Source of the DNA: a virus
Taxonomy: Duplodnaviria; Heunggongvirae; Uroviricota; Caudoviricetes
Direction: 5' to 3' (one strand)
Virus record (IMG/VR): IMGVR_UViG_3300029849_000006
Coordinates: 1-64,000 of that record
DNA: 64,000 nt
The notes beneath the pieces were generated by a model. It saw only the letters and a program-made list of their open reading frames with translations, made no database searches and was not told the origin of the DNA. A program made the position numbers and the translations under genes. Below, in pieces: positions 4,862 through 42,189 of the stretch. How positions within the stretch are numbered: the stretch's first letter is position 1; every line of letters begins with the position of its first letter.

Positions 4862-5195
4862 TTTGACCTTTTATGGGCGTTTTTGCAGCCTTATTGAAGG
4901 TGATAGAAAGATAATACTAAAGGCAATAAAAAACGGTCGTAAGAAAGGCGTAATCGGAGCCATTCAGCCTGGAAGACATGATAGAATTTGGACCACATGG
5001 GCTATTGCTTTTGAGGATCTGAAGGTAGGGGATACGGTAGAGTTTAGTACATCCGGGAAATACAATCCAGGTTTTCATTCTACAGAAAAGTATGTAGGAT
5101 GTGTAGAATGGATAAAAGGATCGGAATGTGCGATAAAAACCGGCAAAGGGATGGCAGTAGTATTAATTAAACACGTGGAAAGGGTAGTAAGATGA
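4812..5195 (+). CDS. hypothetical protein (127 aa)
   Basis: ORF track. Confidence 0.45.
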   Translation: MNRTTKIREEIGGKQVDLTFYGRFCSLIEGDRKIILKAIKNGRKKGVIGAIQPGRHDRIWTTWAIAFEDLKVGDTVEFSTSGKYNPGFHSTEKYVGCVEWIKGSECAIKTGKGMAVVLIKHVERVVR

Positions 5196-5473
5196 AATTG
5201 AGAGAATTTGTAGAACTCTTTGATAAGAATGATGTAAAGGATTTGTTTAAGTCATTATCTTTATGTATGGAATACGTAAGGATAGATTTACATGTATTTA
5301 ATGTAGGTGCTTATGTTACGTGCCTGTACAGTAATGATCTTGAACAGCTTTCAACGATGAAAGGGTGCGCTATATACGCGATAGTAGAAGTACCATGTTT
5401 ATTTGAGGCATTTATGGAATATGCTTCACCGGAATTGAAAGCATATTATGATAAACTAACGAAAGAAGTGTGA
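5192..5473 (+). CDS. hypothetical protein (93 aa)
   Basis: ORF track; 4-nt overlap with the upstream gene. Confidence 0.45.
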   Translation: MKLREFVELFDKNDVKDLFKSLSLCMEYVRIDLHVFNVGAYVTCLYSNDLEQLSTMKGCAIYAIVEVPCLFEAFMEYASPELKAYYDKLTKEV

Positions 5474-5474
5474 C

Positions 5475-5948
5475 ATGAAAGAGGAAGTAGAACGGATAAA
5501 GAAGTTGGTAGGCATAGATCATAATAGATGGGAGCAACCTTGTACATGTGATAAATGCAAGAACATGTGTAAGGTTCCTTGTATTGGTACGCCAAAAGAC
5601 ATAGAGGCTATCATAGATGCCGGATACGCTGATAGGTTAAAAGAAACAATGTGGATGGTAGGGTATCTTGCAGTGAAGGAAAAACCAATAGCGATGATCC
5701 AGCCGACAGAGAAAGACGGGTGGTGCGCATTCCGCCGGCCAGACGGTCTCTGCGAGCTGCATGACCGTGGACTAAAGCCGACCGAAGGAGTTCTGGCTTC
5801 TTGTAAGGTGCTTGAAGAAGACAATATTCCAACATATGAAACGTCTGTACTTAGAGCAGTAGCTCATGAGTGGATTAAGGTAGAGAACTTCGCAACTATA
5901 ATGAGAGTCGTTTTTAAATTTTTGCATGAAAATGAACGTAGAAAATAA
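5475..5948 (+). CDS. hypothetical Cys-rich protein (157 aa)
   Basis: ORF track; CTCDKCKNMCKVPC motif. Confidence 0.5.
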   Translation: MKEEVERIKKLVGIDHNRWEQPCTCDKCKNMCKVPCIGTPKDIEAIIDAGYADRLKETMWMVGYLAVKEKPIAMIQPTEKDGWCAFRRPDGLCELHDRGLKPTEGVLASCKVLEEDNIPTYETSVLRAVAHEWIKVENFATIMRVVFKFLHENERRK

Positions 5949-6336
5949 ATTAGATAAAGTGGTTAATATCCTAAAAGAAAAAGGATTTGTAGTATATAGA
6001 AAGGGCGGGAAGGAGCCAGGTGTGTTTTACGCTAAAGAAGGTGACAGCCGGATAGGATTCGTTTATCCCAACAACGGATATATATATGATAGAATAAAAA
6101 TGTGGTCTTTTTCAAGGATATATAAACCACATAAGAAAACCGGGTCTTCGTGTTTAATGAGCGTCAGCGACGAATTTACGATAGAGAATGCGATTAAGAA
6201 CATAGAGGATAGACTGTGGGTGAATTATATAAAAGATGGTAACAGAAAACGACCAGAAGAATATAAAAATATAAGAGAATTTGTTGGTAGCTTCACTAAA
6301 TTCTACGGCTCTGTAGAATTAGTTGAGGTTAAGTAG
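5926..6336 (+). CDS. hypothetical protein (136 aa)
   Basis: ORF track; followed by a clear intrinsic terminator. Confidence 0.5.
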   Translation: MKMNVENKLDKVVNILKEKGFVVYRKGGKEPGVFYAKEGDSRIGFVYPNNGYIYDRIKMWSFSRIYKPHKKTGSSCLMSVSDEFTIENAIKNIEDRLWVNYIKDGNRKRPEEYKNIREFVGSFTKFYGSVELVEVK

Positions 6337-6357
6337 TTTTCCATGTAAGTTAGTTGC

Positions 6358-13207: not shown

Positions 13208-13603
13208 ATGATAACATCAGTAAAAATAAAAGACAATACGAAAACTCCATTTGAATATGTTTCTGACATAGAAGCGTTTGAAAATGGCAGAGAATTTATT
13301 TTCAAGCCAGGAGTGAATGTGATTGTAGGTAAAAACGGTAGTGGAAAATCAACCTTGCTTAACATCATATCAATGTATGCGTTATGTGAGAAATCCATGT
13401 GCTCTGAAATACCGATCGAGGCACTGGATTTTCCACCTATATTTGATGATGATGATGATGACAAGGTTCTTGATGGGATTGACATATCATCCGATTATGC
13501 AGGGAAAGTATTCCGTTTATTGCCATCGGCGGAGATAAATCAAGATAAAACAGGAGCGTGCGTACAACATCGACCTTTGCATGACTTTCGAAAGATATAT
13601 TGA
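13208..13603 (+). CDS. P-loop (Walker A GKNGSGKST) ATPase N-terminal part; probably continues in frame 0 to 13733 after a frameshift
   Basis: Walker A in translation. Hand translation of frame 0 (13539-13733) gives protein-like ...ERAYNIDLCMTFERYIEIADKDAERAMAFLKEAYPFNEETEVFIRKRYNMSIDVDPEEN*, which overlaps the 3' end of this ORF. Confidence 0.5.
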   Translation: MITSVKIKDNTKTPFEYVSDIEAFENGREFIFKPGVNVIVGKNGSGKSTLLNIISMYALCEKSMCSEIPIEALDFPPIFDDDDDDKVLDGIDISSDYAGKVFRLLPSAEINQDKTGACVQHRPLHDFRKIY

Positions 13604-15763: not shown

Positions 15764-17079
15764 TAGAACAGAAAATAAAAATATTGACAGATTTAGGGTT
15801 TGTACCTATGGTGGAGGGAAAAGGAAATACGTTGTTTAGAATGAACGATGTTGTGATGTCGGTGTCAGATCCTAATCAAACACCGGAGCAGTTGAAGAAG
15901 GAGGTTATGTCTTTAATAAAGAACAGAGACATAGCGGAAAGAGGTGGACAGGTTCCAGTAGTTGAAGAGCCGGCGCCTGAGCCAGAGCAGGCCCAGAAGG
16001 AGGAACCGGAAGCTCCGGCGGAGGAAGCCGCTCCTAACCCCGGAGAAGAGGATTCGAATCCGTTTACAGAAAATCAGGAAACGTTAGAACCGTTTTATAT
16101 CTGTGATGAGTTAAAGAAGATCGAGACTCCCAAATTCGTAAGATTGACATTAGACGGTAATCGTTTTTATGTAAGAAAGATGGACGATGGGACAGCCAAG
16201 ATATACGCCTCGGTAACAACCATGATCAGAGACGGATTCGTAGATGACAAGACGGCTCTTCAAGAATGGAGACAGGAGATGAGGATGATTGGTCGCAATC
16301 CGGAAGAAGTATCAGAATATGATGCAGATAAAGGAACGATCATGCACTACCTATACGGATTGTACTTGACAGGTAGAGATATGGTCTTAAATCGAAGTTT
16401 TATAGTTAAGACAGTGCAAGAAGGCAAGCTTAAAATATCAAAAAAGAATCTTGACAAATTCTTTGGTAGCATAGATGATCTTGATGATATGATTGTCAGA
16501 GTTATGAAGTTTGCTAAGTTTTGTTCGGAGTATAAGGTTAAGCCGATGATGATTGAAAGAATATTGTCATTAGAAGATTATTTGGTAGCTACGCCGATAG
16601 ATGCGATGGTTAAAATGACATTCAAATACAAAGAAGAAGGTTATTTTGGAGCCGTGTATCAAAGGGCTACGGGGCAGTTCAAAAAAGGCGATCCGAAGAA
16701 GGAAGTGAGAGAAGTGGAGAAAGAAGAGATTGTTATCTTAGATTTTAAATCAGGTGACATACGAAATGAACATGCTTTTCAATTGGAGGCTGAAAGGAGA
16801 ATGGTTAAAAACTGGTACGGAATTGATGCACGTATTATGAATTTTTCTCCAAAAAGCACGAACAGTAAAGGTTATACGCTAAAAGAATGGTCTGATAAGA
16901 ATGCTGCTATGGAGAAAGCGGACTGTGTGTTCCAACAAGGGATGTTGAATCATATCAGAAAAGATAAGAGGTTCAAAGTGAGAAAAGGAGTGCTGAATAT
17001 CAATAAGCCGTACAATGAAGAGGATCATACGGTCGTGTATGATATTGCAGAGGAAATGTCTAAAAGATTCATAATATGA
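15760..17079 (+). CDS. PD-(D/E)xK (RecB-family)-like nuclease domain protein with Pro/Glu-rich linker (439 aa)
   Basis: Motif VILDFKSGD (hhDhK[ST]G, nuclease motif III) in the translation; assignment tentative. Confidence 0.45.
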   Translation: MIEQKIKILTDLGFVPMVEGKGNTLFRMNDVVMSVSDPNQTPEQLKKEVMSLIKNRDIAERGGQVPVVEEPAPEPEQAQKEEPEAPAEEAAPNPGEEDSNPFTENQETLEPFYICDELKKIETPKFVRLTLDGNRFYVRKMDDGTAKIYASVTTMIRDGFVDDKTALQEWRQEMRMIGRNPEEVSEYDADKGTIMHYLYGLYLTGRDMVLNRSFIVKTVQEGKLKISKKNLDKFFGSIDDLDDMIVRVMKFAKFCSEYKVKPMMIERILSLEDYLVATPIDAMVKMTFKYKEEGYFGAVYQRATGQFKKGDPKKEVREVEKEEIVILDFKSGDIRNEHAFQLEAERRMVKNWYGIDARIMNFSPKSTNSKGYTLKEWSDKNAAMEKADCVFQQGMLNHIRKDKRFKVRKGVLNINKPYNEEDHTVVYDIAEEMSKRFII

Positions 17080-17309
17080 ACGATATTGTTATTCCTGAAG
17101 GAGATTATATAGAAATCGTAAAACCGATATGCATCAATCCTTTTGGTGATTATTTTATTAACATCAAAAGGGGTTCGAGATTAAGATTATCGAAAGATTT
17201 GAAAATAGGAGATAAATATGCAATATGTGTACTTGCATCTCATAAGAAATATGGCAAGACCATCGAAATAATAATGCCTATATTGGTCAGAAATACAAGA
17301 AGAGTATGA
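17076..17309 (+). CDS. hypothetical protein (77 aa)
   Basis: ORF track. Confidence 0.35.
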   Translation: MNDIVIPEGDYIEIVKPICINPFGDYFINIKRGSRLRLSKDLKIGDKYAICVLASHKKYGKTIEIIMPILVRNTRRV

Positions 17310-17656
17310 AAAGAAAAATTAGAAGAACAGGAGAGATAATAGACGTAATCACTTTCAGTAGCTCAACTACAAGAAGCGACCATGACAGAATACAGTTCTA
17401 TGGTGATAATGGGAATGTGATAAGTGAGAGTTTAAATTTTTATCTCGATACCCTTCCTGTAAATGACGAAAACAAAGATGTAGACTGGGAGCAACGTAGA
17501 TTCGATCTTATCAAGGCTTATTCTATTGAGTTTGTTAAAGCACAAAATAGAAAAGGTGAAATAGATTGCGGAGTATATGTACCAGATGTGGTGTCATGGT
17601 CTATAACTATAGCAGATAGAATCATAGAGGCGATGAGAGGAGTTAAAAATGCTTGA
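17306..17656 (+). CDS. hypothetical protein (116 aa)
   Basis: ORF track. Confidence 0.4.
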   Translation: MKRKIRRTGEIIDVITFSSSTTRSDHDRIQFYGDNGNVISESLNFYLDTLPVNDENKDVDWEQRRFDLIKAYSIEFVKAQNRKGEIDCGVYVPDVVSWSITIADRIIEAMRGVKNA

Positions 17657-18686
17657 TTTTAGAAAATACGAAAACGTACCTCGGTTTCAACTTGACCGCA
17701 GGCCGGGCAGGAGCCGACTGAAGCTAACCTGCCCAGCTTGCGGGAAAAGCCGGTGCCTCACTCCTTATATTGATGTGGCAACAGGTCAGGTTGTTGGCAA
17801 CGAGTTCGGAAGATGCGATCATGAACGGACTTGCGGTTACGATAAACGACCTACCGGTAAGGATGTAGGTGACAAAGATCTTTGGATTTCAGGAAACAAG
17901 TGTATAAGAGCTTATCGTCCTCCTGTAAATCCTGACGTTGTAAATTACATACCTTTTAGCGAGTTTGAGAGGACTGTGGTTCCAGATGATAGAAATACTG
18001 TATTTAGATTTTTATCGTCTCTGTGGGGGAAAGAAAGGGTGTCTGATGTGTTCAGAAGGTACCATGTCGGAACAATGGATTTATGGGGATGGAAAGGGTG
18101 TTGTATATTCTGGCAGATAGACAAAGATTTTGTATGTAGAACCGGCAAGATCATGGACTTTTATATAAAGACCGACAGCCAGGGGAATGAGATTGATGTA
18201 AAAAGAGTGAAGGAAAAAGACGGTGACAATGAGCGGCCTCATGTTATGTTTTATCACTCGTTGCATGCAAGAGACTTCTTGTTTAGGCAATGCCTGTTCG
18301 GAGAGCATCTTCTAAGCCAGTATCCGGATAAGGTGGTTAATCTGGTGGAATCAGAAAAGACGGCTATTATATGCGCTGTGAATAAACCAGATGAGTTATT
18401 TGTAGCTACCGGTGGGTTGCAGAATCTAAGGCCGGAAGTGATAGATGTTTTAAAAGATAGAAAGACTGTAGCTTTTCCGGACAAAGGACAAGCATTTGAG
18501 ACATGGAGTAAAAAGATAGATGGGATGATGATGAAGTCAAGGATAAAAGTATCGGACTATCTTCAAAATGTTGAAAATGTAGGAGACGGAGATGATGTGG
18601 CAGATTTGATAATTAGTAACAAGGTAAAAGAAAAATATTATGAGCCTGGATGTTTATATCAAGAACAAAAAGAAAGAAGATCGTGA
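17649..18686 (+). CDS. DNA primase-like protein (N-terminal Zn-ribbon CPACG...CDHERTC plus TOPRIM-like region)
   Basis: Zn-binding motif in the translation; downstream LVESEKTAI ... VAFPDKG resembles the TOPRIM E / DxD pattern. Confidence 0.5.
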   Translation: MLDFRKYENVPRFQLDRRPGRSRLKLTCPACGKSRCLTPYIDVATGQVVGNEFGRCDHERTCGYDKRPTGKDVGDKDLWISGNKCIRAYRPPVNPDVVNYIPFSEFERTVVPDDRNTVFRFLSSLWGKERVSDVFRRYHVGTMDLWGWKGCCIFWQIDKDFVCRTGKIMDFYIKTDSQGNEIDVKRVKEKDGDNERPHVMFYHSLHARDFLFRQCLFGEHLLSQYPDKVVNLVESEKTAIICAVNKPDELFVATGGLQNLRPEVIDVLKDRKTVAFPDKGQAFETWSKKIDGMMMKSRIKVSDYLQNVENVGDGDDVADLIISNKVKEKYYEPGCLYQEQKERRS

Positions 18687-19833: not shown

Positions 19834-20112
19834 ATGGGCAGATCAACAGAGTACTACAGGACTCATCCCGAAGCCAGGAAGAAAAAGGCTAAAAAGGACA
19901 AGGAGATAAATGCCAGACCGGAACAGAAAGCCAAACGCCGAGAGCTTGGTCGTAAAAACTACGAAACGGACAAGAAGAAGGGTAAGGGCTGGAGAAAAGG
20001 AAAGGATTGTTCTCATACCAAGAACGGTCTTAGGTATAAATCAGTAAAAGCTAATAGGGGATCCAAATCGGATACGAAAGGTGACAAAAATGCAAGAGGA
20101 TCTGAAAAATAA
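19834..20112 (+). CDS. highly basic Lys/Arg-rich small protein (92 aa), possible nucleic-acid binder
   Basis: Composition of the translation. Confidence 0.4.
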   Translation: MGRSTEYYRTHPEARKKKAKKDKEINARPEQKAKRRELGRKNYETDKKKGKGWRKGKDCSHTKNGLRYKSVKANRGSKSDTKGDKNARGSEK

Positions 20113-21214
20113 AATAGATATAAGAAGGATATTCAAGACCTCTAAACAGGTTATGGAAGAGGCGTATGAGAATATCTTGAAATACAGGCGGGGAGAGCTT
20201 ATCCCCGCTAAAACCGGATACGATTATATTGATGAGGCTTTGCTTGGAGGTATTTTTCCTCAGCATGCTATTGCCATAGGAGCCCGGCCATCTGTGGGTA
20301 AATCGTATGTGGCCCAAAAGATATTGGAAAATGTGATGAATCCGATGATCAACCCGCAAGCAGAAGATTATTTTCTTGTCAATTGCGAGTTCGAAATGAA
20401 TCCTCAAGATCTTCTTCTTCGTAGAATGAGCCAGGATATGAAAAAGCGGGCTCCTGAAATATTAAGAAGGCAAGATTCTAATACAGTGGAAGAGATGAGG
20501 ATGTTTGAAATCCTTCAAGGTGAAATCAGGAATAATATAATATACATCGATGCTCCGTGTACGGTAAAAGAGTTTGAGGCGGCTGTGTATCATATAGCTA
20601 CCAAACACAAAGACAAACGTCTTATAATATTTAAAGTCGATCATATTGCTTTGATAAAAAGAATGGGGTTAGATCCTAAGTCGGCTATAGATGATTTGGT
20701 GGCGGTTATGAACGAGGCTAAATTAGTATATAAAAACATATTTTTCCTCATCATATCCCAATTCAACAGAGAGATAGAAGGAAGGATAAAAAGCCCACAA
20801 GAACAGCCTCCGCGTCTTTCTGATTTTTACCAGTCTGATACGCTGGGTCAGTTATGTACGTTAATGATAGGTTTGCACAATCCTCGTAGGTACGGGCTGG
20901 ATAAGTATATGATATTTGGGAAAGATTGGTATCAGACTCTTGATAGGTTTAAAACTGAAAACAAAACATCATTCAGGACAGCCGGACTGGTGTTTCATCA
21001 TATACTGAAGGTAAGGCAAGTTAGTATGGAAGAGCTTACTAATACAATCCACCCAGAGATACTGCCGGGACATGGATGGATGTACGGGGAGGGCGGGACG
21101 AAGTTCGTGAACCCCAACCAGCCGCCGACGCCGCCCAAGCTCTATACTGTGGAAGACGTTACGGACAATCAGGAACAAGAACAAGAGACAAAAGAAGAAC
21201 AGTCATTGTATTAA
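20081..21214 (+). CDS. DnaB-like replicative helicase (RecA-fold ATPase domain)
   Basis: Walker A AIGARPSVGKSYVAQ, Walker-B-like LIIFKVDHIALI and overall DnaB C-terminal-domain layout in the translation; lies 1.4 kb downstream of the primase-like gene. Confidence 0.6.
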   Translation: MTKMQEDLKNKIDIRRIFKTSKQVMEEAYENILKYRRGELIPAKTGYDYIDEALLGGIFPQHAIAIGARPSVGKSYVAQKILENVMNPMINPQAEDYFLVNCEFEMNPQDLLLRRMSQDMKKRAPEILRRQDSNTVEEMRMFEILQGEIRNNIIYIDAPCTVKEFEAAVYHIATKHKDKRLIIFKVDHIALIKRMGLDPKSAIDDLVAVMNEAKLVYKNIFFLIISQFNREIEGRIKSPQEQPPRLSDFYQSDTLGQLCTLMIGLHNPRRYGLDKYMIFGKDWYQTLDRFKTENKTSFRTAGLVFHHILKVRQVSMEELTNTIHPEILPGHGWMYGEGGTKFVNPNQPPTPPKLYTVEDVTDNQEQEQETKEEQSLY

Positions 21215-21847: not shown

Positions 21848-22045
21848 ATGGAAAAGAAGGAATTTAAAGTAGGAGAAGTATTTACTGCCGGACTTGTAAG
21901 ATTAAAATGTGTGGAAGGTGATACATGCGATAGGTGTATATTCGAAAAATACAATTATTGTTCATGTACAGACATGATTATTGGTCCATGTGAACATATT
22001 GATAGACAAGATAACAAGGATGTTATTTTCATTAAAGCTGATTAA
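21848..22045 (+). CDS. small Cys-rich protein (65 aa)
   Basis: ORF track; SD ACAAGGAGGGAATATG upstream. Confidence 0.4.
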   Translation: MEKKEFKVGEVFTAGLVRLKCVEGDTCDRCIFEKYNYCSCTDMIIGPCEHIDRQDNKDVIFIKAD

Positions 22046-22047
22046 GA

Positions 22048-22761
22048 ATGTACATCAATTTCAGACAACTTGCAGCATCAGACATGACTCCTAATGATCT
22101 TGCCAATCTTCTTGCCATAAGACAGAAGGATTCGGTTATGACCGAAGCCATGCCGGAAGAAGATGCTGGGAGGTATATAGAGCTTGGCCTGGTTGAGAAA
22201 TTAAAATCAGGCGTGATGAGATTGACCAACAAAGGAACGTCTTTTGTGAATTATATAGAGACACCGGAAATGACAGACGAGGTTCTGGAAACGTTGAAGA
22301 TTATGATAGGAATGTACGAATCGTATTCAAAAGACATAGGTGTCAGCAGAAAAGAAGCAGAATCCAGGTTGTGTTGGTTTATGGGTAACACCTCATTCAA
22401 GAAAGAGGTCATACTTCAGGTAACGGAATCTTATATAGCAGAGTCAGGAGATTATACAATGAGCTTATGCAACTTCATATGGAAACCGCCTTCTCAGGCT
22501 TTTTCAGTCCATATGAACCTTAAAAATTCAAAGCTCTTTGACTTAATAGCTGAAAAATTTAAGATCGCTACCGAGCCTTATTTGGAGTCTAAGAAGAATA
22601 AGGAAATGGATTGGTTGTTTGCCGTATCTAAATTGCCTACGCCGCCGGCTAAAGGCAATCCGGATTATTTGTTTACCGGAAGTTCTGAAACAGACAAAGA
22701 GAGATTGAAAAACATAAAAACGTATTTATTTAACAAAATTAGAAAGCAATGGAAAAAGTAA
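22048..22761 (+). CDS. hypothetical protein (237 aa)
   Basis: ORF track. Confidence 0.5.
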   Translation: MYINFRQLAASDMTPNDLANLLAIRQKDSVMTEAMPEEDAGRYIELGLVEKLKSGVMRLTNKGTSFVNYIETPEMTDEVLETLKIMIGMYESYSKDIGVSRKEAESRLCWFMGNTSFKKEVILQVTESYIAESGDYTMSLCNFIWKPPSQAFSVHMNLKNSKLFDLIAEKFKIATEPYLESKKNKEMDWLFAVSKLPTPPAKGNPDYLFTGSSETDKERLKNIKTYLFNKIRKQWKK

Positions 22762-23000
22762 GAATCAGAAAGATAATAGAGGATATAATTATTACTCAGT
22801 TTCTTAATTCAGAAATGGATATAGTTCATGAAGAAGATGTGACGTTTAAAGAACTTGGATTAGATTCTCTTGATCAAATTGAACTTGAAATGATGGTGGA
22901 ACAAAAATTCAATATTGTTATTATTGATTATGATATGGAGACCATCAAAGATATGACTGATCTTGTTTACAAAATAATAACAGAAGGATATGGGAAGTGA
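22749..23000 (+). CDS. acyl carrier protein-like (83 aa)
   Basis: Translation ...FKELGLDSLDQIELEMMVEQKFNIVI... matches the ACP phosphopantetheine-site consensus (DLGaDSLDtVELVMalEeeFgieI), with Ser in DSL. Confidence 0.6.
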   Translation: MEKVRIRKIIEDIIITQFLNSEMDIVHEEDVTFKELGLDSLDQIELEMMVEQKFNIVIIDYDMETIKDMTDLVYKIITEGYGK

Positions 23001-23484
23001 TATAATTTTATGCATGGCTTTAATAGCGTCATTTGCTTTTGTTATACAGTTTTTGTTGTCGATATTAGGATCTGATCTGGATACGGATATTGACATTGAC
23101 AGTGCTTCTGATTTAAGCATGTCTTTGTCGGACATCATATCATTCAAGGGCATAACACATTTCATTCTTGGATATAGCTGGACTACTTACTTTTCGGGTT
23201 CCCATTTAGTAGGGGTTGTGATAGGGTCGTTTTTCTTTATCGTTTTGTTTTACGTATATAAGTTACTTCTTAAGTTAAAGCAAGAAATGGTGTACGAATG
23301 TCCGGAAGATTTGAATGGCAGAGAGGTGGAGATAGTATTTAGATCAGGGAAGAACCATTATATGGTAAATATTTCGAAAAATGGAAGACAGGAGCAAATG
23401 AGAGTAAGATGCTTGTCTGGAAAAACCTACAAAAACGGCGACAAGGCGAATATAAAATATGAAGAAGGAGAATTAAGTATCTAA
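22990..23484 (+). CDS. NfeD-like membrane protein (N-terminal TM segments plus C-terminal OB-fold-like tail)
   Basis: Hydrophobic N-terminal half and beta-rich C-terminus (EVEIVFRSGKNHYMVNI...RVRCLSGKTYKNGDKANIKYE). It sits immediately upstream of an SPFH gene, as in yqiJ-yqiK / yuaF-floT operons. Confidence 0.5.
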   Translation: MGSDIILCMALIASFAFVIQFLLSILGSDLDTDIDIDSASDLSMSLSDIISFKGITHFILGYSWTTYFSGSHLVGVVIGSFFFIVLFYVYKLLLKLKQEMVYECPEDLNGREVEIVFRSGKNHYMVNISKNGRQEQMRVRCLSGKTYKNGDKANIKYEEGELSI

Positions 23485-23516
23485 TTTTTTTTATCAACAA
23501 TTAAATTTTAAAAGTT

Positions 23517-25217
23517 ATGACAACAATCATGTACGTGTCAGCTATCTTAGCTGTAGTGATTATTTTAACAATCATCGGAGTCTTATCAAGGTATCGTAGA
23601 TGTAAGCCTAATCAGGTCTTGGTCGTTTATGGTAAGACAGGTGGGGAAAAGAAATCGGCGAAATTATATCATGGTGGAGCGGCATTTGTCTTGCCTATTA
23701 TTCAAAGCTATGATGTTTTGTCAATGGAGCCTATGCAAATAGATTGTAGGCTCACCGGTGCTTTGTCGTCTCAAAATATCAGAGTGGATGTACCTACTAC
23801 TATTACAGTAGCAATCAGCACAAATCCTGAAATTATGCAGAATGCAGCAGAAAGGCTTTTGGGGATGGATACTGAATCTACTGAAAATCTTATTACGGAT
23901 ATTGTTTATGGCCAAATGCGTTTGATCATTGCTGAAATGACGATTGAAAAACTTAATTCTGACAGGGATGAGTTTTTGGATAAGGCAAGAAAAAACATTG
24001 ATAACGAACTTAATAAGTTAGGCCTTTACCTCCTAAATATCAACATCAGTGACATCAGAGACGAAGCCGGCTATATCATGAATCTTGGCAAAGAAGCTGA
24101 AAGTAAGGCCCTGAACGAAGCACAGGCTAATATCGAAGAACAGGAAAAGCTGGGTGCTATTAAGATTGCTGTACAGCAAAAGGAAAAAGAAACGGCTGTA
24201 GCTAATACCCAAAAAGAGCAAGAGATTCAAATTGCCCATACTGAAAAAGAAAAGGAAACGGTAGTAGCTGAAACAAAGAAAGAAAAAGAAGTAGCTTTGG
24301 CTTTAACCGATAAAGAAAAACAGATCGGTGTAGCTCAAGCCGATAGAGATAGGGCTGCGGTTATTGCAAAGACTTTGGCTGATAAGGAATCAGCGATCGC
24401 AAGATCTAAGGCAGAACTTGAGGTAAACAAAGCTGAAGCTGAAAGAATGGAAGAAGTCGGAAAGAATAAGGCTGAGGCTGATAAACAAGCAGCTATAGCA
24501 ATCCAAGATTCCGAAGCTCAGATCAAGAAAGCTGAAGCTGAGAAAAACGCATCTGTGGGTTATAACAATGCCCAGAAAGAGGTTGCTATATCAGAATCAG
24601 AATTACAGGTTATCAAAGCTCAATCAGAAAAGAAGGCTGGAGAAGAGAGGGTTAAGTCGGAAGCGGCTGTAAAAACGGCAAAAGAGCTTGCTGATAAAGA
24701 AGTGGAAGAAGCTAAAGCTAAGAAGGTTCAAGCTGCGCTTAAAGCTGAAAAGATTGTGCCGGCTGAAATTCAGAAGCAGGAGGCTATGTTGCAAGCTGAT
24801 GCTGAAGCTGAGAAGATCAAACGCCGGGCTGATGCCGAAGCAGCAGCACATTTGGCAAAAGCAGAAGCGGAAGCAAAAGCTATTCAGATGAAGCTGGAGG
24901 CAGAAGCCGAAGGTAAGAAAAAGTCGTTGATGGCAGAAGCCGACGGATTTAAGGCTATGGTGGAAGCGGCAGAATCCAATCCTCAGATAGCCATCCAGTA
25001 CAAGATGGTTAATCAGTGGAAAGAAATTGCTGGAGAACAGGTTAAGGCATTTGAGCACATTAACCTCGGAAATATCACGGTATTTGACGGCGGTCAGAAC
25101 AGTACCGGTAATTTCCTTAACAATGTTGTTAAGACCGTCGCTCCGGCATTGGGAGTCATTGATCAGCTTCCGATTGCAGATACTTTAAAGAAGCTAAAAG
25201 GAGATGACAAAAAATAA
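23517..25217 (+). CDS. flotillin-like SPFH/Band-7 protein with Glu/Ala-rich coiled-coil (566 aa)
   Basis: N-terminal TM; SPFH-like core (YHGGAAFVLPIIQSYDVLSMEPMQIDCRL...); long KAEAEA/EA-repeat coiled coil typical of FloT/YqiK. Confidence 0.7.
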   Translation: MTTIMYVSAILAVVIILTIIGVLSRYRRCKPNQVLVVYGKTGGEKKSAKLYHGGAAFVLPIIQSYDVLSMEPMQIDCRLTGALSSQNIRVDVPTTITVAISTNPEIMQNAAERLLGMDTESTENLITDIVYGQMRLIIAEMTIEKLNSDRDEFLDKARKNIDNELNKLGLYLLNINISDIRDEAGYIMNLGKEAESKALNEAQANIEEQEKLGAIKIAVQQKEKETAVANTQKEQEIQIAHTEKEKETVVAETKKEKEVALALTDKEKQIGVAQADRDRAAVIAKTLADKESAIARSKAELEVNKAEAERMEEVGKNKAEADKQAAIAIQDSEAQIKKAEAEKNASVGYNNAQKEVAISESELQVIKAQSEKKAGEERVKSEAAVKTAKELADKEVEEAKAKKVQAALKAEKIVPAEIQKQEAMLQADAEAEKIKRRADAEAAAHLAKAEAEAKAIQMKLEAEAEGKKKSLMAEADGFKAMVEAAESNPQIAIQYKMVNQWKEIAGEQVKAFEHINLGNITVFDGGQNSTGNFLNNVVKTVAPALGVIDQLPIADTLKKLKGDDKK

Positions 25218-25224
25218 ATACAAT

Positions 25225-25255
25225 GGCCCAAGGTTACACTTGGGCCTAATTGAAG
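25225..25255 (+). terminator. hairpin GGCCCAAG-GTTACA-CTTGGGCC followed by a weak U-rich tract
   Basis: Read directly 8 nt after the flotillin stop. Confidence 0.35.
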
Positions 25256-25380
25256 AAATAAAAGCAGCATTTATAGATTTCATGCCAGCAGGAATAGTGA
25301 TTTTTAGTGCTTTATTGATTAATATATTTTTAATATGGATTTTGGACAAGATTTAGAACCAGAAGAACTGACCAAGCATT

Positions 25381-25740
25381 ATGATCAGTGTTATGGAATT
25401 GATTTTGAAACAGAAGAAGAGGAGGATGAAGAGTATGACTGATGAGGAATTTGTATTGGATAATAAGAAAAAGGTTATTGTAAGAAAAAGAATATCTTAT
25501 TTAAACAAAGGTGATAAAGTATGGATCGTGTCTTCCGACGGGTATCTGCTACACACGGACGTAGTTAGAGCCGAACGCGGACGGTCTTATGTGGATATAG
25601 ATGGGATTCTGTATTGGAAGCGAGGATTAGATGGCAAGCATCGTAATCGTAATAACTACATGCAGTTTGCCATGACACCAGAAGACGGTAAGAAGTATGT
25701 CGTATATTACCCGGAAGGATTTAAAGACAATGACTTATGA
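25381..25740 (+). CDS. hypothetical protein (119 aa)
   Basis: ORF track. Confidence 0.4.
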   Translation: MISVMELILKQKKRRMKSMTDEEFVLDNKKKVIVRKRISYLNKGDKVWIVSSDGYLLHTDVVRAERGRSYVDIDGILYWKRGLDGKHRNRNNYMQFAMTPEDGKKYVVYYPEGFKDNDL

Positions 25741-26756
25741 TGGTCCCGGAAACGCATTTGCTATATAAGGAGTTTAATGGTGTAAAACGTCTTGCCATAT
25801 CTTATTCCCAGATAGATACGTTTCTTACCTGTCCAATGAAATGGTATAAGACTTACGTAGAGGGCAAAAGGTCTACGGAAAAACAAGAAGCTACGTCTTA
25901 TGGTACGGTTATCCATAAGACACTGGAATACTTTTTTAAGAACGGAAGACAGCCTTCTGGTAAAGACCTTGGAGAAGCAATAAGTTACTATTCCTATCAA
26001 GAAGACATACCTTGGCAATCACCGGAAAATATGATGATAGCCATGAAGCAATCTGGAGAGCTTCTTGCTTGGATTGTGGATCTGTTTAAAAAAGACGGGA
26101 ATAGGTTTATGATAGCTGATAGTGATCTTAATCCCTGCGAGAAACTTATCAGGCACGGCGCCATAGTTGGAGTCGAAGAAGATTTTGTGCTGCCGTACCG
26201 TCTTCCTAAGCCTGTTGATATAAATGGGGTAATTCATACCCATGTGTACATAGTAGGATCAGTGGATCTTCATCTGGCTATAAAAAGCAAGAACGTAGTT
26301 CACCATTATGTCATAGATTGGAAATCAGGGAATAAGGTTTTTGACTCTAAGAAGCTGGAAACGAATTTACAGCATCCTATATATTCATTTTACATCTATA
26401 GAAAATATGGTGGAGTTCTGCCAGATATGAACATCTATTTCTTTACCAGAACCAGGCAGTACCAAAAGGTTAAGGTAAATGAAGAGCGTAAAACAAAATC
26501 TATAGAAATGCTAAATGACACTTTATCTAAAATGTATGATTTTGAAGATAATAGTGTAAAAACATTTCAGGCATACATCCAGGGAGCAGAAGGAGCCAGA
26601 TATAGCAAGCGGCGTGCCACCCTAAGCCAGCCTGTTCCGCAAAACAAGCTGCCCTGCCCGTCGGCACTGTGTTATTATTGTGACTTTGGATTACATAACA
26701 AAAACGAATGCCCTTTCTCTTCGGATTGGGATCCGTCTAAAAAGATAAAACGATGA
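25737..26756 (+). CDS. Cas4/RecB-family PD-(D/E)xK exonuclease with Fe-S-type cysteines
   Basis: Motif III VIDWKSG (hhDhK[ST]G) in the translation. N-terminal Cys (FLTCPMKW) and C-terminal CPSALCYYCDFGLHNKNEC arrangement resembles Cas4. Confidence 0.6.
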   Translation: MMVPETHLLYKEFNGVKRLAISYSQIDTFLTCPMKWYKTYVEGKRSTEKQEATSYGTVIHKTLEYFFKNGRQPSGKDLGEAISYYSYQEDIPWQSPENMMIAMKQSGELLAWIVDLFKKDGNRFMIADSDLNPCEKLIRHGAIVGVEEDFVLPYRLPKPVDINGVIHTHVYIVGSVDLHLAIKSKNVVHHYVIDWKSGNKVFDSKKLETNLQHPIYSFYIYRKYGGVLPDMNIYFFTRTRQYQKVKVNEERKTKSIEMLNDTLSKMYDFEDNSVKTFQAYIQGAEGARYSKRRATLSQPVPQNKLPCPSALCYYCDFGLHNKNECPFSSDWDPSKKIKR

Positions 26757-38200: not shown

Positions 38201-41200
38201 GCCGACTGTTCTGATTCTACGTCATTCCAAAACCGATCGTTGAATGACAGGTGACCCCCCAACATAAGCGTCTTCAGCGCAGCTTCTCCTCCAGACTCGC
38301 TCTGAATCGTTCTTAATTTTTGCAAAAACGATTCTGATACGGCATTAGTGACATTATTTGATTCCTTTCTCCAAACTTCATTTATGGCTTGTATTTCTTT
38401 GGCCATCTTAAGTTGGTCGCCGGTTTTTCCCACTCTCCTGGTTCCTACATATATGTATTCTGAAGCTGCTTCCTTACGTTGTTTACGAAGCAGTCCTTCT
38501 TCTTCGTAATTGCTGCTTTTAAAATAGGAGGCCTCATCAAAATTACCACCGCTATCAATAAAAGGCTGCCTCAATATCCGTTTTTGCCTGGATAGAGCAT
38601 TAAGGTATTCTTTGGTTGTTTGAGAAACCGGATGCCCTAATTCTTCTTCAGCCTTTTTGTATATGGATTCCATTCTTGTGGCATAACTTTCGCTAAATTC
38701 CAGTTCCGAATTTTCAGCATCCCACTTTTCCATCTGCTCTGTATAGATCTTTTCCTGCTCGATGGTAAAAATATCGGTATTAACTCTATCAGACGATGGT
38801 TTGAATTTAGCGTTTTCAGTAACCGTATTTCCATCCTTGTCAACTACTTCTCTTTTAAATACGTAATTACGGTTATTGTCAACCACATCACCAATTTCTT
38901 CTTCTGATATCTCTATGTTCATGGCAGTCGCAAACGCTCGCATCTGCGCCAGCTTCTTATTACGATCGTATTTAGCCATATCAAGAGCACTACGAAGGTA
39001 ATTAGAAGTTTTGCCGTCTACTTTCTGAAGCAGTTTTTCAAATTCAGATTTGTTAAAACCATGCTTTTTCGCATATGCCAGGAAGTCGGATATGGCGGGC
39101 TGGGCATTCACCATCGCATTGTAATTGTCTTTGGCAATCATAGCTCCAAGAGCGTTATTGAACGGACTGGAAGAATGCTCTAATATACCAAACCACCTAC
39201 TTATCCAAGAAACATCGTGTTGAACCTTGTCGAAAAATTCTTTTACTCTCTTTACCTTATCTGCCGGCACATGAAGTTCGTTCATTAACTTATCAAGCAA
39301 CGTGCTTTCATCAAGGTCTTGTACTGATTTAATATCAGACTGAATACCATTGATGTCGGCAATGACGGTATTGATCCTATTTGTATAATCCTGCTTTTCA
39401 CGTTCATCAAATTCGGTACTTCTGTTACGGATATATCCTCGAAGATCGTTCATGATCGGAAGAACCTGATTGTTGATAATATCTACGTTCTTTCGATCAT
39501 TGGTATTGAAATGAAGCTTGCCGTCTTTGGTATCACCATGAAGGATGGTGTTCACCACATTACTTAAGTATCTGACCTGAGCTTCGGCTGTGGAGATCAT
39601 GCTGTTCATGGCAGCCGCCATCTCATTCTTGTCTATTTCGGTCTCTACCTTATTTATCTTATCTTCTATGGTCTTAAGCTGAGCAAGGGTCATAGACGTA
39701 GTTACAGCCCTATCAGAGCTTATCTGACGTAAGTCTCTTAATGTTTTTCTTAGTGATCTGATCTTGGACTCAAGAAACTTGTTCTTGTTCATAGAAGAAA
39801 GGGAGTATAATGTAAAGTCATTATCCTTTAACAGAGAGGTGTCAAATCCTTTATCTATGTCGGTAATGGCAAGATCACGAATGTTTTTAATAACGTTATT
39901 CAAATCTTGTCTTTGGGTAGATAAAGTTGATTTAAGCCAGCTTACTATTCCAGAGAGAAGCTGCCGGACGCTCCCCAGGAAGGAGGTGGGCTCTACCGGC
40001 GCCTGTGCTGTGCCGGTCTGCATCTCCCTGGCGAGGATCTTTCCAAGAATTTCTCTCCTAACAGCATTATCAAGTTCAGAGCCTTCATATACCTTACCGT
40101 ATGTATTATAATACTGACCTGCATATTGGTTCCACTCTTCCGTACCTTCTACATCTTGCAGAACAGCCTCAACAGCATTCTGATCTCTGTATGCCTCTAC
40201 AAGGAAGTGGGCTGTTTCTTCTACTAAATCGGATAAAGTAGCATCTTCACCAACTGCTATTACGTTATTGGCAATATCCGCCAATGCCTTAGCAGAAGGT
40301 TCATGCCCGTATTTGGTTTGGTACTTCTCTATATAGTCGGTCATACCTATGACACTAACGCCAAGAGTTTTCAGTATCTCGACAATAGAATTTCGTTGAT
40401 CACGTTCCTGCCTGCTATAATCTGATACGATCTTAGCTTTAGTATCAGCATAAAGATCGTTGTCTTCTAATATGAATGAAACTACAAGCGCATCAAAATG
40501 ATCGTACTTGGCGTCCAATTCATTGTATCTTCCTGACTTAAGATCGTTCTTTATCTGTTCCCTACTAACCCTTTCCGTTCCTCCGGTGGCAAGTCTCATA
40601 GTTACCTTACTGTTATCCAACGAGCTTATGGTTATCATACCCTGGTCGTTCATGGAAACATCGGAACCAAAATGATTACGGAGCTCAGTGTATGATAAGG
40701 CTGAATTGAAAAGTCTAATTTGTCCTGTATGACCTTCTCCTGTAAGATAATAGCTTCTTGTTTCAGGATCGAATATCTTAGATCCTGACAAAAGACCTTT
40801 CTTTATAAGGTAGTTAATTATCCCGCCTTTTGTTGATAAAGAAGTAGAAGCAGAAGCGGTCATGACCGGTATAAAAGACTTGGGATTATTAAGAACATAC
40901 TTTCCAGCTTTGTAAGTAATGTCTGCCACGCCATCCCAGGCAGATTCTTGAACGGTGCCTGATAAGAATCCTATTCTAATATCATTCCCGCCAGAGCGAA
41001 GAGCTTCTCCGTAATCTTCAAATAATTGACTACGATCGTTCATGAAAAACAAACGAGGCTCTCCGGTCTGATACGTTACACCCACAGGATTAGAATCTGT
41101 CTGTGGTAACTCTTCTGGGCTAAATATCTTAAGACCGTCTTTTATAACCATATAATTAACACCCTTATCCTGTACCATAGATACGGGAGTGAAGTCCGAA

Positions 41201-41679
41201 GATATAGCATCTTGTAGATACTGCCCGGCGTCTATTCCAGGTCCTTCCGGTACGGAAATACTTGACGGAACCATAGCATCCACCAACATAATATTATCAC
41301 CCAGATCTTGGCTATAGAATCCGAAGCCTGATTCTTGAATCCCATAAGTTGCATCTGATTTTGATACAAGAACAGGATTACTCATCTTAGAAGCCTTATC
41401 CAGTACCCTTTCTCTATAAGCTTCCGGAATAAGATCAATGTTGGATTTAACCTTATTATAAGCCGGTTTGTTGATAGGCACTCTCTTTCTCCAGTCGCCA
41501 AAATCCTTTAAGAACTTATTAGAAAATACGGTTTTAAAAACAGTAGTAGCCCGTTCCCTGTTCTCCATAAGAGGAATAGATGCTATCTTATCAAACAACA
41601 TAGACCTGTCCCCTGATCTGGTAGAGACAGAAACAACTTTCTTTTTATTATCTCTTTTAATAATACACGTTGATACCAT
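35257..41679 (-). CDS. giant virion-associated protein (2140 aa); possibly a tail/ejection protein or virion-packaged RNA polymerase-like protein
   Basis: Uninterrupted 6.4-kb ORF with balanced composition. Giant genes in a structural block are typical of large podophages such as crAss-like phages. The closest match to a DxDGD catalytic motif seen by eye is YDADGNE. Confidence 0.7.
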   Translation of the reverse strand: MVSTCIIKRDNKKKVVSVSTRSGDRSMLFDKIASIPLMENRERATTVFKTVFSNKFLKDFGDWRKRVPINKPAYNKVKSNIDLIPEAYRERVLDKASKMSNPVLVSKSDATYGIQESGFGFYSQDLGDNIMLVDAMVPSSISVPEGPGIDAGQYLQDAISSDFTPVSMVQDKGVNYMVIKDGLKIFSPEELPQTDSNPVGVTYQTGEPRLFFMNDRSQLFEDYGEALRSGGNDIRIGFLSGTVQESAWDGVADITYKAGKYVLNNPKSFIPVMTASASTSLSTKGGIINYLIKKGLLSGSKIFDPETRSYYLTGEGHTGQIRLFNSALSYTELRNHFGSDVSMNDQGMITISSLDNSKVTMRLATGGTERVSREQIKNDLKSGRYNELDAKYDHFDALVVSFILEDNDLYADTKAKIVSDYSRQERDQRNSIVEILKTLGVSVIGMTDYIEKYQTKYGHEPSAKALADIANNVIAVGEDATLSDLVEETAHFLVEAYRDQNAVEAVLQDVEGTEEWNQYAGQYYNTYGKVYEGSELDNAVRREILGKILAREMQTGTAQAPVEPTSFLGSVRQLLSGIVSWLKSTLSTQRQDLNNVIKNIRDLAITDIDKGFDTSLLKDNDFTLYSLSSMNKNKFLESKIRSLRKTLRDLRQISSDRAVTTSMTLAQLKTIEDKINKVETEIDKNEMAAAMNSMISTAEAQVRYLSNVVNTILHGDTKDGKLHFNTNDRKNVDIINNQVLPIMNDLRGYIRNRSTEFDEREKQDYTNRINTVIADINGIQSDIKSVQDLDESTLLDKLMNELHVPADKVKRVKEFFDKVQHDVSWISRWFGILEHSSSPFNNALGAMIAKDNYNAMVNAQPAISDFLAYAKKHGFNKSEFEKLLQKVDGKTSNYLRSALDMAKYDRNKKLAQMRAFATAMNIEISEEEIGDVVDNNRNYVFKREVVDKDGNTVTENAKFKPSSDRVNTDIFTIEQEKIYTEQMEKWDAENSELEFSESYATRMESIYKKAEEELGHPVSQTTKEYLNALSRQKRILRQPFIDSGGNFDEASYFKSSNYEEEGLLRKQRKEAASEYIYVGTRRVGKTGDQLKMAKEIQAINEVWRKESNNVTNAVSESFLQKLRTIQSESGGEAALKTLMLGGHLSFNDRFWNDVESEQSARTESNNKASYLKMAHDIISSTTSDRDATDVDSIVKDIEKNKAIIKEIIGNNRDVADIGEINEATFTSSERDAFRAASEAIEADYAILIDYAKMVGLEDIDKYLTKSSKAENEVNQSYLNALADSKEVEWKFVQRHTTAKKAKRIQALRDKLFKAADNRYLFTVSETNYLSEKLGISKELDGRDFRNAVNAKMASLFLNNTREEGVEEANAIVNEFARSQVFSYYKRMAPTGYAAMIDKIGRGEIDVAQMVKDVQNGTSTQDYGMDISYLSFDPARAWVAESEAENSGRNPDYVKDHGYGHRMPKKSLYRDESYFNDFGIKYDADGNEVATKNVEQWNMIQKLKEIKRQSLDLYKEQSPNLYAIPQISKQDIERMEGLGINFKNTVRNFVSDLCLDRVDDSLYGKTRQGEVYDPEDRLRSIPKYYIYELENQDDVSHDFGYSYSMLMMQSSLYNEKQKSIELAQGLEQMLLNKQFEGGKKAEATQAYQMFRDFFNDHYYGIRMNTKKLTVNIGGYTVDLTRIMMAVERFMSVMNLALSPFVAATGALTGHINLIMESAVGQYISKDSLKYASAEFSRLAPSCIAETGDIDRKSKLYVIGERMGIFNIRNRMYGAGYNRAARTLMRSPMYAFMEILNYPLDPQVMIATMDNVRYYKGRFYTFQDFKMEKERNKEQSTIKREWNALKDRTLWSMVDVVDGKVVVKPGSGVTVEEVETQMAITRNQVRSLSQICNGSLNEENRTAASRNWIARFMTAHRGWLVLAAQRLWKRRGFNFQTMQEEEGLSITLKNMIAKTFSLASESGMKNIIDAWNENKDNMNEVEKTNLKRLSVYAGTFLIMQAVSMLLAGWRDDDENEESWLTQFGSYVGFRTINEIASQMPFIMELNVVDIINDPFVMGRKLKDLTDLRNYSLDKVTSGTYKGESKLFRQLAKQTFIKQWYNIKTPEDVARAYNWWQQTNNKSMMFFIGATPDSEGDDDVSYK

Positions 41680-41779
41680 GATAAAACATTTTTGTTATGA
41701 GACAAAGGTAGTTAAAAATAAAGCATATCATAAAAAATAAAGCCACCTAACTTCTCAGTCTGATGGCTTAAAAATAATA

Positions 41780-41813
41780 TGAAAAAAAAATTATAATCTG
41801 ACGAAAAATCGTC
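41780..41813 (-). terminator. weak hairpin GACGA-AAAA-TCGTC with a T9 run further downstream on the - strand
   Basis: Read directly after the stop of gene 41823..42146. Confidence 0.3.
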
Positions 41814-41822
41814 AAGTTCAGC

Positions 41823-42146
41823 TTATATGTAATGCATGTACCCATCTCGGTGTATAAACCTTCCCGATTCAAAGCGCTCAATATCTTCAGGGCAAATAGA
41901 GCCCGAATCCTCTCTCCTGGCTTCAAACCAAAGCCCCGGCTTACGAATTAGGCAAGTTATGATATAATTGAAGCAATTGTGCGTAAAATGGAAAACAGAT
42001 CCTACAGGGAAATACCTATCAGCTTGAAATACGATTCTTTTTCGTTTAGTATCAAACGTGATATCTCCTACTATCTTAGCCACGTAATAGCTTCTGCCAT
42101 TTAACGTTTCATCTGTTTGTGGTATCCAATAATAACCTCTTGCCAT
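41823..42146 (-). CDS. hypothetical protein (start moved to MARGYYW to avoid the terminator hairpin)
   Basis: ORF track 41823..42176; the first 10 codons overlap the terminator at 42160-42189. Confidence 0.4.
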   Translation of the reverse strand: MARGYYWIPQTDETLNGRSYYVAKIVGDITFDTKRKRIVFQADRYFPVGSVFHFTHNCFNYIITCLIRKPGLWFEARREDSGSICPEDIERFESGRFIHRDGYMHYI

Positions 42147-42159
42147 GCCACAAATATAT

Positions 42160-42189
42160 AAAAAAAAATCGGACAAGATATATGTCCGA
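42160..42189 (-). terminator. rho-independent terminator: TCGGAC-ATATATCTT-GTCCGA then U8
   Basis: On +: A8 at 42161-42168, then TCGGACAAGATATATGTCCGA at 42169-42189. Confidence 0.6.

Follow-up and report, generated by a model that had tools for sequence, protein, structure and literature searches.

The defining context of short NfeD proteins is placement beside a flotillin gene, as in the yuaF-floT and yqiJ-yqiK operons. CrAss-like phages are among the most abundant human gut viruses, and most of their accessory genes are without a known role. Systems that combine an SPFH protein with an NfeD protein have been linked to tolerance of membrane and protein stress (PMC13086221), and, as summarised there, QmcA-YbbJ builds a cage of 26 heterodimers in E. 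coli, while a FloA-NfeD pair stabilises unfolded proteins under stress in S. aureus. SPFH genes have also been noticed in other phages, where they were left without explanation (PMC13239085). This analysis concerns a putative operon of the same type in the window, a stretch of 64,000 nucleotides (positions 1 to 64,000) of the IMG/VR virus record IMGVR_UViG_3300029849_000006, together with the acyl carrier protein (ACP) gene that precedes it.

Taken as a whole and with its function included, it is probable that positions 22990-25217 hold an operon for an NfeD-like protein and a flotillin scaffold that was captured once, as a unit, from Bacteroidales by an epsilon crAss-like phage. The identity and the host origin of the pair can be stated with high confidence; the functional reading, drawn by analogy, is that the pair would keep membrane organisation and membrane-protein function during infection, and we regard it as an evenly balanced proposal. 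The locus is an accessory membrane module that is rare in phages and built from known parts.

Three consecutive plus-strand open reading frames (ORFs) at 22749-23000, 22990-23484 and 23517-25217 (83, 164 and 566 residues) make up the locus, with the same boundaries that an earlier note on this DNA had given for an ACP, an NfeD-like membrane protein and a flotillin. Across positions 22000-26000 the window is 95.6% identical to GenBank record OR575929 ("phage csAssE-Sib"), the genome of CrAssE-Sib, a 151-kb epsilon crAss-like phage from the human gut (PMC11054128). The trio is already named in that record, as "acyl carrier protein" (WOZ57347), "transmembrane protein" and "flotillin family protein" (WOZ57345), and is undiscussed in the literature searched: the CrAssE-Sib paper mentions neither flotillin nor ACP (PMC11054128), and no paper tying crAss-like phages to flotillin was found. 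The earlier note had called such a trio among replication genes unusual, which is correct in that the flotillin is rare in phages (a tblastn search of 50,697 phage records gave matches in 10, of which those in CrAssE-Sib and Vibrio phage KIT04 are convincing and the rest are short unannotated fragments), although the genes themselves were annotated before.

The gene pair and its Bacteroidales counterpart

The pair and its parts are laid out as follows.

22990-23484, plus strand: short NfeD-like membrane protein, 164 residues, assigned by fold and operon context
22993-23292, plus strand: its predicted membrane region, with a helix at residues 2-25, an acidic loop, an SFKG..HF motif and helices at residues 52-69 and 72-101 (AlphaFold2 model, alignment)
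23074-23118, plus strand: the acidic loop in that membrane region, DLDTDIDIDSASD
23302-23481, plus strand: predicted C-terminal OB-fold (NfeD-type) domain, residues 105-164 (AlphaFold2 model, structure comparison)
23485-23516, plus strand: 32-nucleotide spacer between the NfeD-like and flotillin genes, with a poly-T tract
23517-25217, plus strand: flotillin (FloT/YqiK-type SPFH protein), 566 residues, with Band_7 and Flot matches
23529-23597, plus strand: its N-terminal hydrophobic membrane anchor, MYVSAILAVVIILTIIGVLSRYRR, residues 5-27, as read from the sequence
23604-24149, plus strand: SPFH/Band_7 domain, residues 30-211 (Pfam match)
24150-24863, plus strand: Ala/Glu/Lys-rich coiled-coil region, residues 212-449, by composition
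24864-25193, plus strand: C-terminal Flot domain, residues 450-559 (Pfam PF15975)

The larger protein has matches to Band_7 at residues 30-211 (89.7 bits against a threshold of 23.6, E 3e-25) and to Flot (PF15975) at residues 450-559 (38.4 bits against 27, E 1.5e-9), and across its residues 212-470 Ala makes up 22% and Glu and Lys 17% each, with 29 EA or AE dipeptides. The presence of a Flot domain together with an EA-rich coiled coil places it in the flotillin subfamily rather than with stomatin or HflK/C, and bears out the earlier description of a 566-residue flotillin-like SPFH protein with an EA-repeat coiled coil. Its score of 147.5 bits against the NCBIfam FloT equivalog model NF058507 is under the cut-off of 700, so it is a flotillin and not a FloT orthologue. 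By sequence, the solved structures nearest to it are those of eukaryotic flotillin-2 (4e-23) and flotillin-1 (2e-18), and PHROGs has no family for the phage protein.

The smaller partner is supported as NfeD-like by its modelled fold and its operon context, not by a match to a hidden Markov model (HMM), so the label that the earlier note gave it stands on the former grounds only. The protein has no direct match in Pfam, NCBIfam, PHROG or PADLOC. The NfeD profile PF01957 is matched neither by the window protein nor by six relatives (four host, two other), all without a Pfam match, and 1 of 75 family members does match Pfam NfeD, at 6e-5. The Pfam profiles for the YqiJ N-terminal and OB domains likewise gave nothing at E<=1 for the protein or its homologues, and its 164 residues lack the ClpP-like protease domain of long-form NfeD proteins. 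A word-indexed homologue search recovered close phage relatives only, and an exhaustive profile search was needed to reveal a family of 412 representatives at E<=1e-3, mostly of 155-185 residues and matched end to end. Members share the motif IQF-LS...D-D-D-D...SFKG--HF--G and a C-terminal beta domain, and D33, S51, K53, G54, H57, F58, G61 and G79 are conserved columns in an alignment of 75 of them.

The AlphaFold2 model of the phage protein (mean pLDDT 72, about 85 at residues 112-163) predicts three membrane helices on the N-terminal side and a small beta barrel, which is five-stranded and of OB type; among solved structures, this modelled C-terminal domain comes nearest to NfeD domains. When the full-length model was compared with the PDB by Foldseek, the top match was the YbbJ chain of QmcA-YbbJ (8z5g_AA; E 0.013, 119 columns), and a viral structure library gave a protein of 34% identity whose UniProt name is "NfeD-like C-terminal domain-containing protein". 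The family profile also aligns with the OB domain of YuaF over 59 columns (hhalign E 3e-4, probability 40%), with E 0.19 in a whole-PDB search, and a phmmer search with the YuaF domain recovered none of the other NfeD structures. Bona fide NfeD domains thus miss each other by sequence, which suggests that sequence searches between NfeD domains are weak in general. As a side observation, the match in the viral structure library is BFVD A0A8S5RJ68, a protein of 175 residues from virus sp. ctML55, and other uncultured viruses may carry a partner gene of this kind.

The operon context comes from a scan of Bacteroidales, one genome per species and with the flotillin alignment as query, which gave 80 loci in Bacteroides, Phocaeicola, Parabacteroides, Prevotella, Leyella and Xylanibacter with flotillins at 62-67% identity. 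A gene of the NfeD-like family lies immediately upstream of flotillin in 79 of the 80, across a gap of about 35 nucleotides and with E values of 1e-50 to 1e-64, bar one copy shortened by a contig end; the sole exception among the 80 loci is itself cut by a contig end. Such near-constant adjacency indicates that this family is the standard operon partner of flotillin in Bacteroidales. The same position, immediately 5' of an SPFH gene and in its orientation, is occupied in the window and in three other contexts (L006, L087 and L089), of which the metagenomic chromosomal contexts L087 and L089 show the NfeD-like/flotillin order. Two distant flotillin homologues, P0289 (62%) and P0278 (49%), lie among bacterial housekeeping genes, each directly after a 165-residue homologue of the NfeD-like protein. 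The proposal that the phage pairing reproduces a bacterial operon is therefore confirmed, and the operon copied is that of Bacteroidales. By the same evidence, a flotillin partner family of Bacteroidales that had no Pfam match can be identified as a divergent short NfeD. In the bacterial flotillin P0278 (L087:8001-9980; 659 residues), part of the SPFH domain is repeated internally, whether genuinely or through misassembly.

In neighbour-joining trees of the two proteins, the phage sequences form a clade that falls outside every Bacteroidales genus sampled, and each host genus stands at much the same distance from it, with identities of about 69% (flotillin) and about 42% (NfeD-like protein). 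A clade outside the sampled genera that is evenly related to all of them fits one old capture of an intact operon. Divergence is uneven along the flotillin: identity is 77-80% in the SPFH domain (compared with Bacteroides, Phocaeicola, Parabacteroides and Prevotella proteins) and 77-84% in the Flot domain, 52-55% in the anchor, and about 56% in the coiled coil, which has 33 extra residues in the phage.

Phage lineages, selection and natural knock-outs

A close relative of the phage flotillin is encoded on at least 159 IMG/VR contigs. The 80 loci kept from these match at 96-99% identity, with the ACP gene in 79 and the NfeD-like and flotillin genes in all 80, and the variant L088 keeps the arrangement of the trio as well. 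A second phage lineage, found in ENA and Logan assemblies, has the same gene order and the same 11-nucleotide overlap between the ACP and NfeD-like genes. Recurrence of the trio on at least 159 contigs and in a second lineage argues that the arrangement is not due to chance. Comparison of lineages 1 and 2 gives amino-acid identities of 83% (flotillin), 63% (NfeD-like protein), 79% (a DnaB-like helicase encoded upstream), 76% (a 237-residue ORF that precedes the ACP gene) and 40% (ACP); both genes of the pair are retained across this distance, at which synonymous sites are saturated (dS, the synonymous divergence, >1.7 or undefined). A second IMG/VR scan, aimed at lineage 2, returned lineage 1 only. 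These lineage-2 phages, also epsilon crAss-like, additionally carry TnpB (OrfB_IS605) and NAMPT/NAPRTase-family genes about 6 kb downstream of flotillin (L170:15180-16034 and 16233-17707; L171:14880-17342).

Selection was assessed within species as the ratio of nonsynonymous to synonymous divergence (dN/dS), with the IMG/VR loci pooled against the window. The ratio is 0.037 in the flotillin gene and 0.052 in its NfeD-like partner, next to 0.043 for the exonuclease encoded downstream and 0.058 for the 237-residue ORF, values by which the intact pair is as constrained as core replication genes. Gene integrity tells the same story in IMG/VR, where 78 of 80 flotillin copies reach 90% of full length or more and each of the 80 NfeD-like copies has the full 164 residues; in variant contigs, the NfeD-like gene is called at 162 or 164 residues wherever it lies inside the contig.

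The flotillin module is also dispensable, because flotillin has been knocked out repeatedly in circulating genomes. The loss alleles include a 1-nucleotide deletion at 24831 (allele P0281, with 348 member sequences from JGI, ENA and Logan), a 1-nucleotide deletion at 24917 within the Flot domain, a truncation to 507 residues (P0253, 172 members), a split gene (L181) and deletion of the whole gene (L177); the loci that show flotillin knock-outs are L175-L177 and L181-L190. In-frame length variants of the coiled coil, giving proteins of 459-597 residues, are common. In the spacer before flotillin, the poly-T run (23485) differs by one T in either direction between genomes that are otherwise alike.

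The acyl carrier protein and the surrounding gene block

The gene in front of the pair, its critical codon and the nearest upstream landmarks are these.

22749-23000, plus strand: stand-alone ACP, 83 residues (Pfam PF00550, phrog_5934)
22866-22868, plus strand: TCT, as read from the sequence, which encodes Ser40 in the DSL motif (predicted site of 4'-phosphopantetheine attachment)
22048-22761, plus strand: 237-residue ORF that overlaps the ACP start, with no family match
20081-21214, plus strand: DnaB-like helicase, upstream of the trio

The protein, which contains LGLDSLDQIELEMMVEQKFNIVI, scores 27.7 bits over residues 22-71 with the Pfam PP-binding model PF00550, above its gathering score of 20.8, and matches the PHROG family phrog_5934, "acyl carrier protein", at 3.6e-11; the earlier assignment as an ACP is upheld by both matches. 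NCBIfam ACP models match at 1e-9, under their equivalog cut-offs, and for the AcpP equivalog (PRK00982/TIGR00517) the best score is 38 bits against a cut-off of 71, with 35.5 against 70.45 for TIGR00517. E. coli AcpP aligns with the phage protein through an LG-DSLD-ELxM-E-F core. Judged on these sequence comparisons, the phage protein is a genuine PP-binding carrier protein and not an AcpP orthologue. Among the phages searched, only jumbo phages of Yersinia and Pectobacterium have relatives of it.

The captured host operon does not include the ACP: at the 80 Bacteroidales loci, the ORFs within 4 kb of that operon gave no counterpart of the phage ACP or of E. coli AcpP, even with the threshold relaxed to E<=10. 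The gene is most plausibly a separate accessory one, in place before the two phage lineages diverged. Its dN/dS, from the same pooled comparison, is 0.35, a sign of much quicker evolution than in the pair and of another selective regime; 9 of 83 distinct IMG/VR copies are truncated, and the 40% identity between lineages nevertheless leaves the LGLDSLD motif in place. The common amino-acid polymorphisms in IMG/VR (L/I/V41, Q/R/K43, E/D47 and M/V/A/T48) cluster in helix II, the ACP surface that meets partner enzymes. The ACP gene overlaps the end of the 237-residue ORF by 13 nucleotides at its start and the start of the NfeD-like gene by 11 nucleotides at its end. Co-expression with the pair is likely, to judge from the overlapping codons, and overlaps of start and stop codons are the norm across the whole gene block.

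Ser40 is kept in the 40%-identical ACP of lineage 2 and in 80 of 80 IMG/VR copies that reach codon 40, and 26 of the 120 closest database variants have another residue there, namely Pro in 13, Phe in 10 and Tyr in 3 (codons CCT, TTT and TAT). The database list consists of cluster representatives, which over-represent rare variants, so 26 of 120 is no population frequency, and the hypervariability of the ACP is in part an artefact of the same choice. The alleles are nevertheless real: S40P (CCT) and S40F (TTT) were confirmed in the DNA of independent samples, on 20 and 18 contigs respectively, and several alleles without the serine are recorded on contigs of up to about 150 kb in the database search. 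Conservation of this serine, which the earlier note had made a check on its ACP reading, thus gives a mixed result: it holds in lineage 2 and across IMG/VR, and part of the closest database variants have lost the serine. Since three different single-base changes have occurred in one codon, on more than one helix-II background, at least three independent losses of Ser40 are indicated. On this evidence the modified (holo) form of the ACP seems dispensable, and it may be asked whether phage ACPs work in modified form at all.

Two explanations for these alleles were considered and rejected. Mutation of the serine codon by a diversity-generating retroelement was set aside by inference, as the changes are at T and C rather than A and the annotated variable region is in a tail-fibre gene. 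Strict coupling of Ser40 loss to flotillin loss was also discarded, because flotillin knock-outs occur with an intact serine as well: damaged flotillin was seen in 4 of 8 Ser40-loss contexts shown (L174-L181, contexts that are de-duplicated and biased), Ser40-loss ACPs stand beside intact flotillin in L174 and L178-L180, and flotillin knock-outs stand beside Ser-intact ACPs in L182-L190.

The search for a phosphopantetheinyl transferase (PPTase) elsewhere in the genome, also suggested earlier, came back empty. No PPTase or lipid-metabolism gene is annotated in the 151-kb OR575929 record; a Pfam scan of 101 ORFs of 95-300 residues gave 22 families, none of them ACPS (PF01648); and in phmmer searches with AcpS and Sfp, none of 613 phage ORFs matched. 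By annotation, Pfam scan and phmmer, the phage genome likewise yielded no acyltransferase or fatty-acid enzyme. With no phage PPTase found, phosphopantetheinylation of the ACP would need a host enzyme. The 237-residue ORF that overlaps the ACP start is similar in size to Sfp-type PPTases, and PPTase motifs were not seen in it by eye; it is conserved, by its dN/dS and its identity between lineages, matches no Pfam family, and gave an uninformative single-sequence structure model (pLDDT 34).

The trio lies inside a densely packed plus-strand block with replication genes. Between the DnaB-like helicase and the ACP are a 200-residue ORF, a 65-residue Cys-rich ORF and the 237-residue ORF, and 3' of flotillin are ORFs of 50 and 119 residues, a PD-(D/E)XK exonuclease (25737-26756) and an SF2 helicase; these flanks (the DnaB-like helicase with the 200- and 237-residue ORFs on one side, the exonuclease and helicase on the other) are the same in the OR575929 annotation. 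A scan for promoters and terminators, which does not model Bacteroidales promoters, showed no enrichment over shuffled sequence. The nearest other relatives of the DnaB-like helicase are in Cellulophaga phages phi17:2 and phi4:1 and other crAss-like phages, and these phages are absent from the matches of both the flotillin and the ACP search.

Elsewhere, the window and OR575929 differ in accessory regions around 13259-13547 and 40934-43934. Just 289 bases in the first 2 kb of locus L001 (OR575929) match the window, and between the large structural gene and position 43934 the window is without the DUF2829 gene of OR575929. Two CrAssE-Sib ORFs (L005:391-1143 and L002:13792-14130), both labelled DUF2829 in that record, match the Pfam family Tad2-like (Thoeris anti-defence 2-like) with a best E of 1.3e-17, and blastn gives no counterpart of the L005 copy in the window.

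Function of the module and comparison with known systems

A mechanism can be proposed for the captured pair. The two genes would probably be co-transcribed with the same-strand replication block in which they lie. Both proteins of the pair would insert into the host inner membrane, with the NfeD-like OB domain and the SPFH domain facing the cytoplasm, and may assemble an SPFH-NfeD cage or microdomain like that of E. coli QmcA-YbbJ. With about 80% identity to the host in its SPFH and C-terminal assembly domains, the phage flotillin could mix with that of the host. What the phage would probably gain is an inner membrane that, with its protein complexes, stays functional in infection, which would make the module a conditionally useful, non-essential accessory function. 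Two observations weigh against this view of the pair as a useful module separate from the ACP: the frequent natural knock-outs could mean that it is often neutral or costly, and the 11-nucleotide ACP/NfeD-like overlap kept in both lineages leaves co-expression, and some functional link, open.

That overlap is among the grounds for treating the ACP, the NfeD-like protein and the flotillin as one functional unit, in which the ACP would handle acyl groups for lipid or microdomain remodelling organised by the scaffold. Adjacency and overlap have survived in two lineages despite 40% ACP identity, with the DSL serine kept, yet an ACP is found within 4 kb of none of the 80 host loci, the dN/dS of 0.35 for the ACP stands against 0.04-0.05 for the pair, Ser-loss ACP alleles and flotillin knock-outs occur independently, the 151-kb genome yielded no PPTase, acyltransferase or fatty-acid enzyme, and overlapping start and stop codons are normal in this block. 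On this balance a single unit of three genes is quite unlikely, and the functional link between ACP and pair that the earlier note had drawn is not borne out. It is also possible to imagine that the phage flotillin co-assembles with host flotillin and repurposes its microdomains, as a platform for phage replication or assembly or as armour against defences that depolarise the membrane, while the ACP acts mainly as an unmodified binder or decoy for acyl-ACP-dependent enzymes of the host. A decoy would explain why Ser40 has been replaced at least three times, why helix II is the most polymorphic part and why no phage PPTase was found; we give this combined proposal a similarly small chance. Use of the pair in conflict, either to block superinfection at the inner membrane or to armour the cell against depolarising abortive-infection effectors, is unlikely as well. 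An accessory pair that is lost in some genomes and kept in others is what fluctuating conflict predicts, the phage carries other counter-defence genes in its two Tad2-like ORFs, and SPFH-NfeD systems have the link to membrane and protein stress tolerance noted above (PMC13086221), but PADLOC gave no match for the ACP, the NfeD-like protein or the flotillin, and strong purifying selection together with about 80% identity to the host protein points to a housekeeping-type activity rather than an arms-race interface.

The knock-outs could instead mark a functionless passenger, host DNA in decay, as several independent flotillin losses (one with 348 members), a whole-gene deletion and the truncated ACP copies would suggest. 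This is very unlikely, given that dN/dS for the two genes equals that of an essential-looking exonuclease, that both are retained across lineages at saturated dS, and that nearly all flotillin and all NfeD-like copies in IMG/VR are of full or nearly full length. An artefact, whether contamination, an assembly chimera or duplication of an attachment (att) site by a temperate phage, has a negligible probability and is refuted by the population data. Some flotillin matches in the phage collection are indeed short unannotated fragments, and one temperate phage does integrate into host floA (PMC13245101), but the same phage flanks recur in the OR575929 annotation and in all phage loci whose surroundings were inspected (L088, L170-L172 and L174-L190, from independent samples), and at least 159 IMG/VR viral contigs encode a close flotillin relative. 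Duplication of host floA at an att site was rejected in particular because the two genes are complete and share just 42-69% identity with host copies, and no integrase is annotated in the OR575929 record.

Set against these alternatives, capture of a Bacteroidales membrane-scaffold operon as an accessory module has several implications. A copy of the host flotillin operon that selection maintains in an abundant phage lineage extends the auxiliary genes of phages from metabolism to membrane architecture. In addition, the co-circulation of intact and several independent knock-out alleles is a natural experiment in which the benefit of a bacterial flotillin system is directly measurable. The most useful leads are these natural knock-outs and the ACP alleles that lack the serine.

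The closest described system is the chromosomal NfeD-like/flotillin operon of Bacteroidales themselves (e.g., L107 of B. thetaiotaomicron and L147 of P. vulgatus), which has the same families, order and spacer (about 35 nucleotides) as the phage; the phage copy differs in lying in a replication block, in its 33 extra coiled-coil residues, in falling outside the host genera and in having an ACP in front. The yuaF-floT operon of B. subtilis and the yqiJ-yqiK operon of E. coli are likewise short NfeD plus flotillin operons, and the phage partner is under the HMM thresholds for both. In the E. coli QmcA-YbbJ cage (PDB 8z5g), YbbJ is the best PDB fold match of the NfeD-like protein, and QmcA is a weak sequence match to the phage flotillin (3.9e-4) but, unlike it, a stomatin-type SPFH protein; 8z5g serves as the template for the proposed assembly of the phage pair.

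Among phages, the flotillin family protein of KIT04 (KIT04_048, LC487410) is 28% identical over 93% of the query and also follows a small membrane protein, but KIT04 is an unrelated T5-like phage of a gamma-proteobacterium, its upstream protein has 82 residues and no OB domain, and there is no ACP. That 82-residue protein (L173:4680-4928, with flotillin at 4929-6350) has a DLDD patch and may be a reduced partner protein. The ACPs of jumbo phages (Yersinia phage fHe-Yen9-04 g153 and Pectobacterium phage CBB; phrog_5934) are stand-alone proteins about 45% identical to the one described here over about 50 residues around DSL, although they belong to other phage groups and hosts and have no flotillin neighbour. 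Finally, the SPFH proteins HflK and HflC control FtsH and lambda CII and so provide an SPFH membrane complex that bears on a phage life cycle; they are host-encoded members of the HflK/C subfamily, whereas the protein of this crAss-like phage is a flotillin, which the phage itself encodes.

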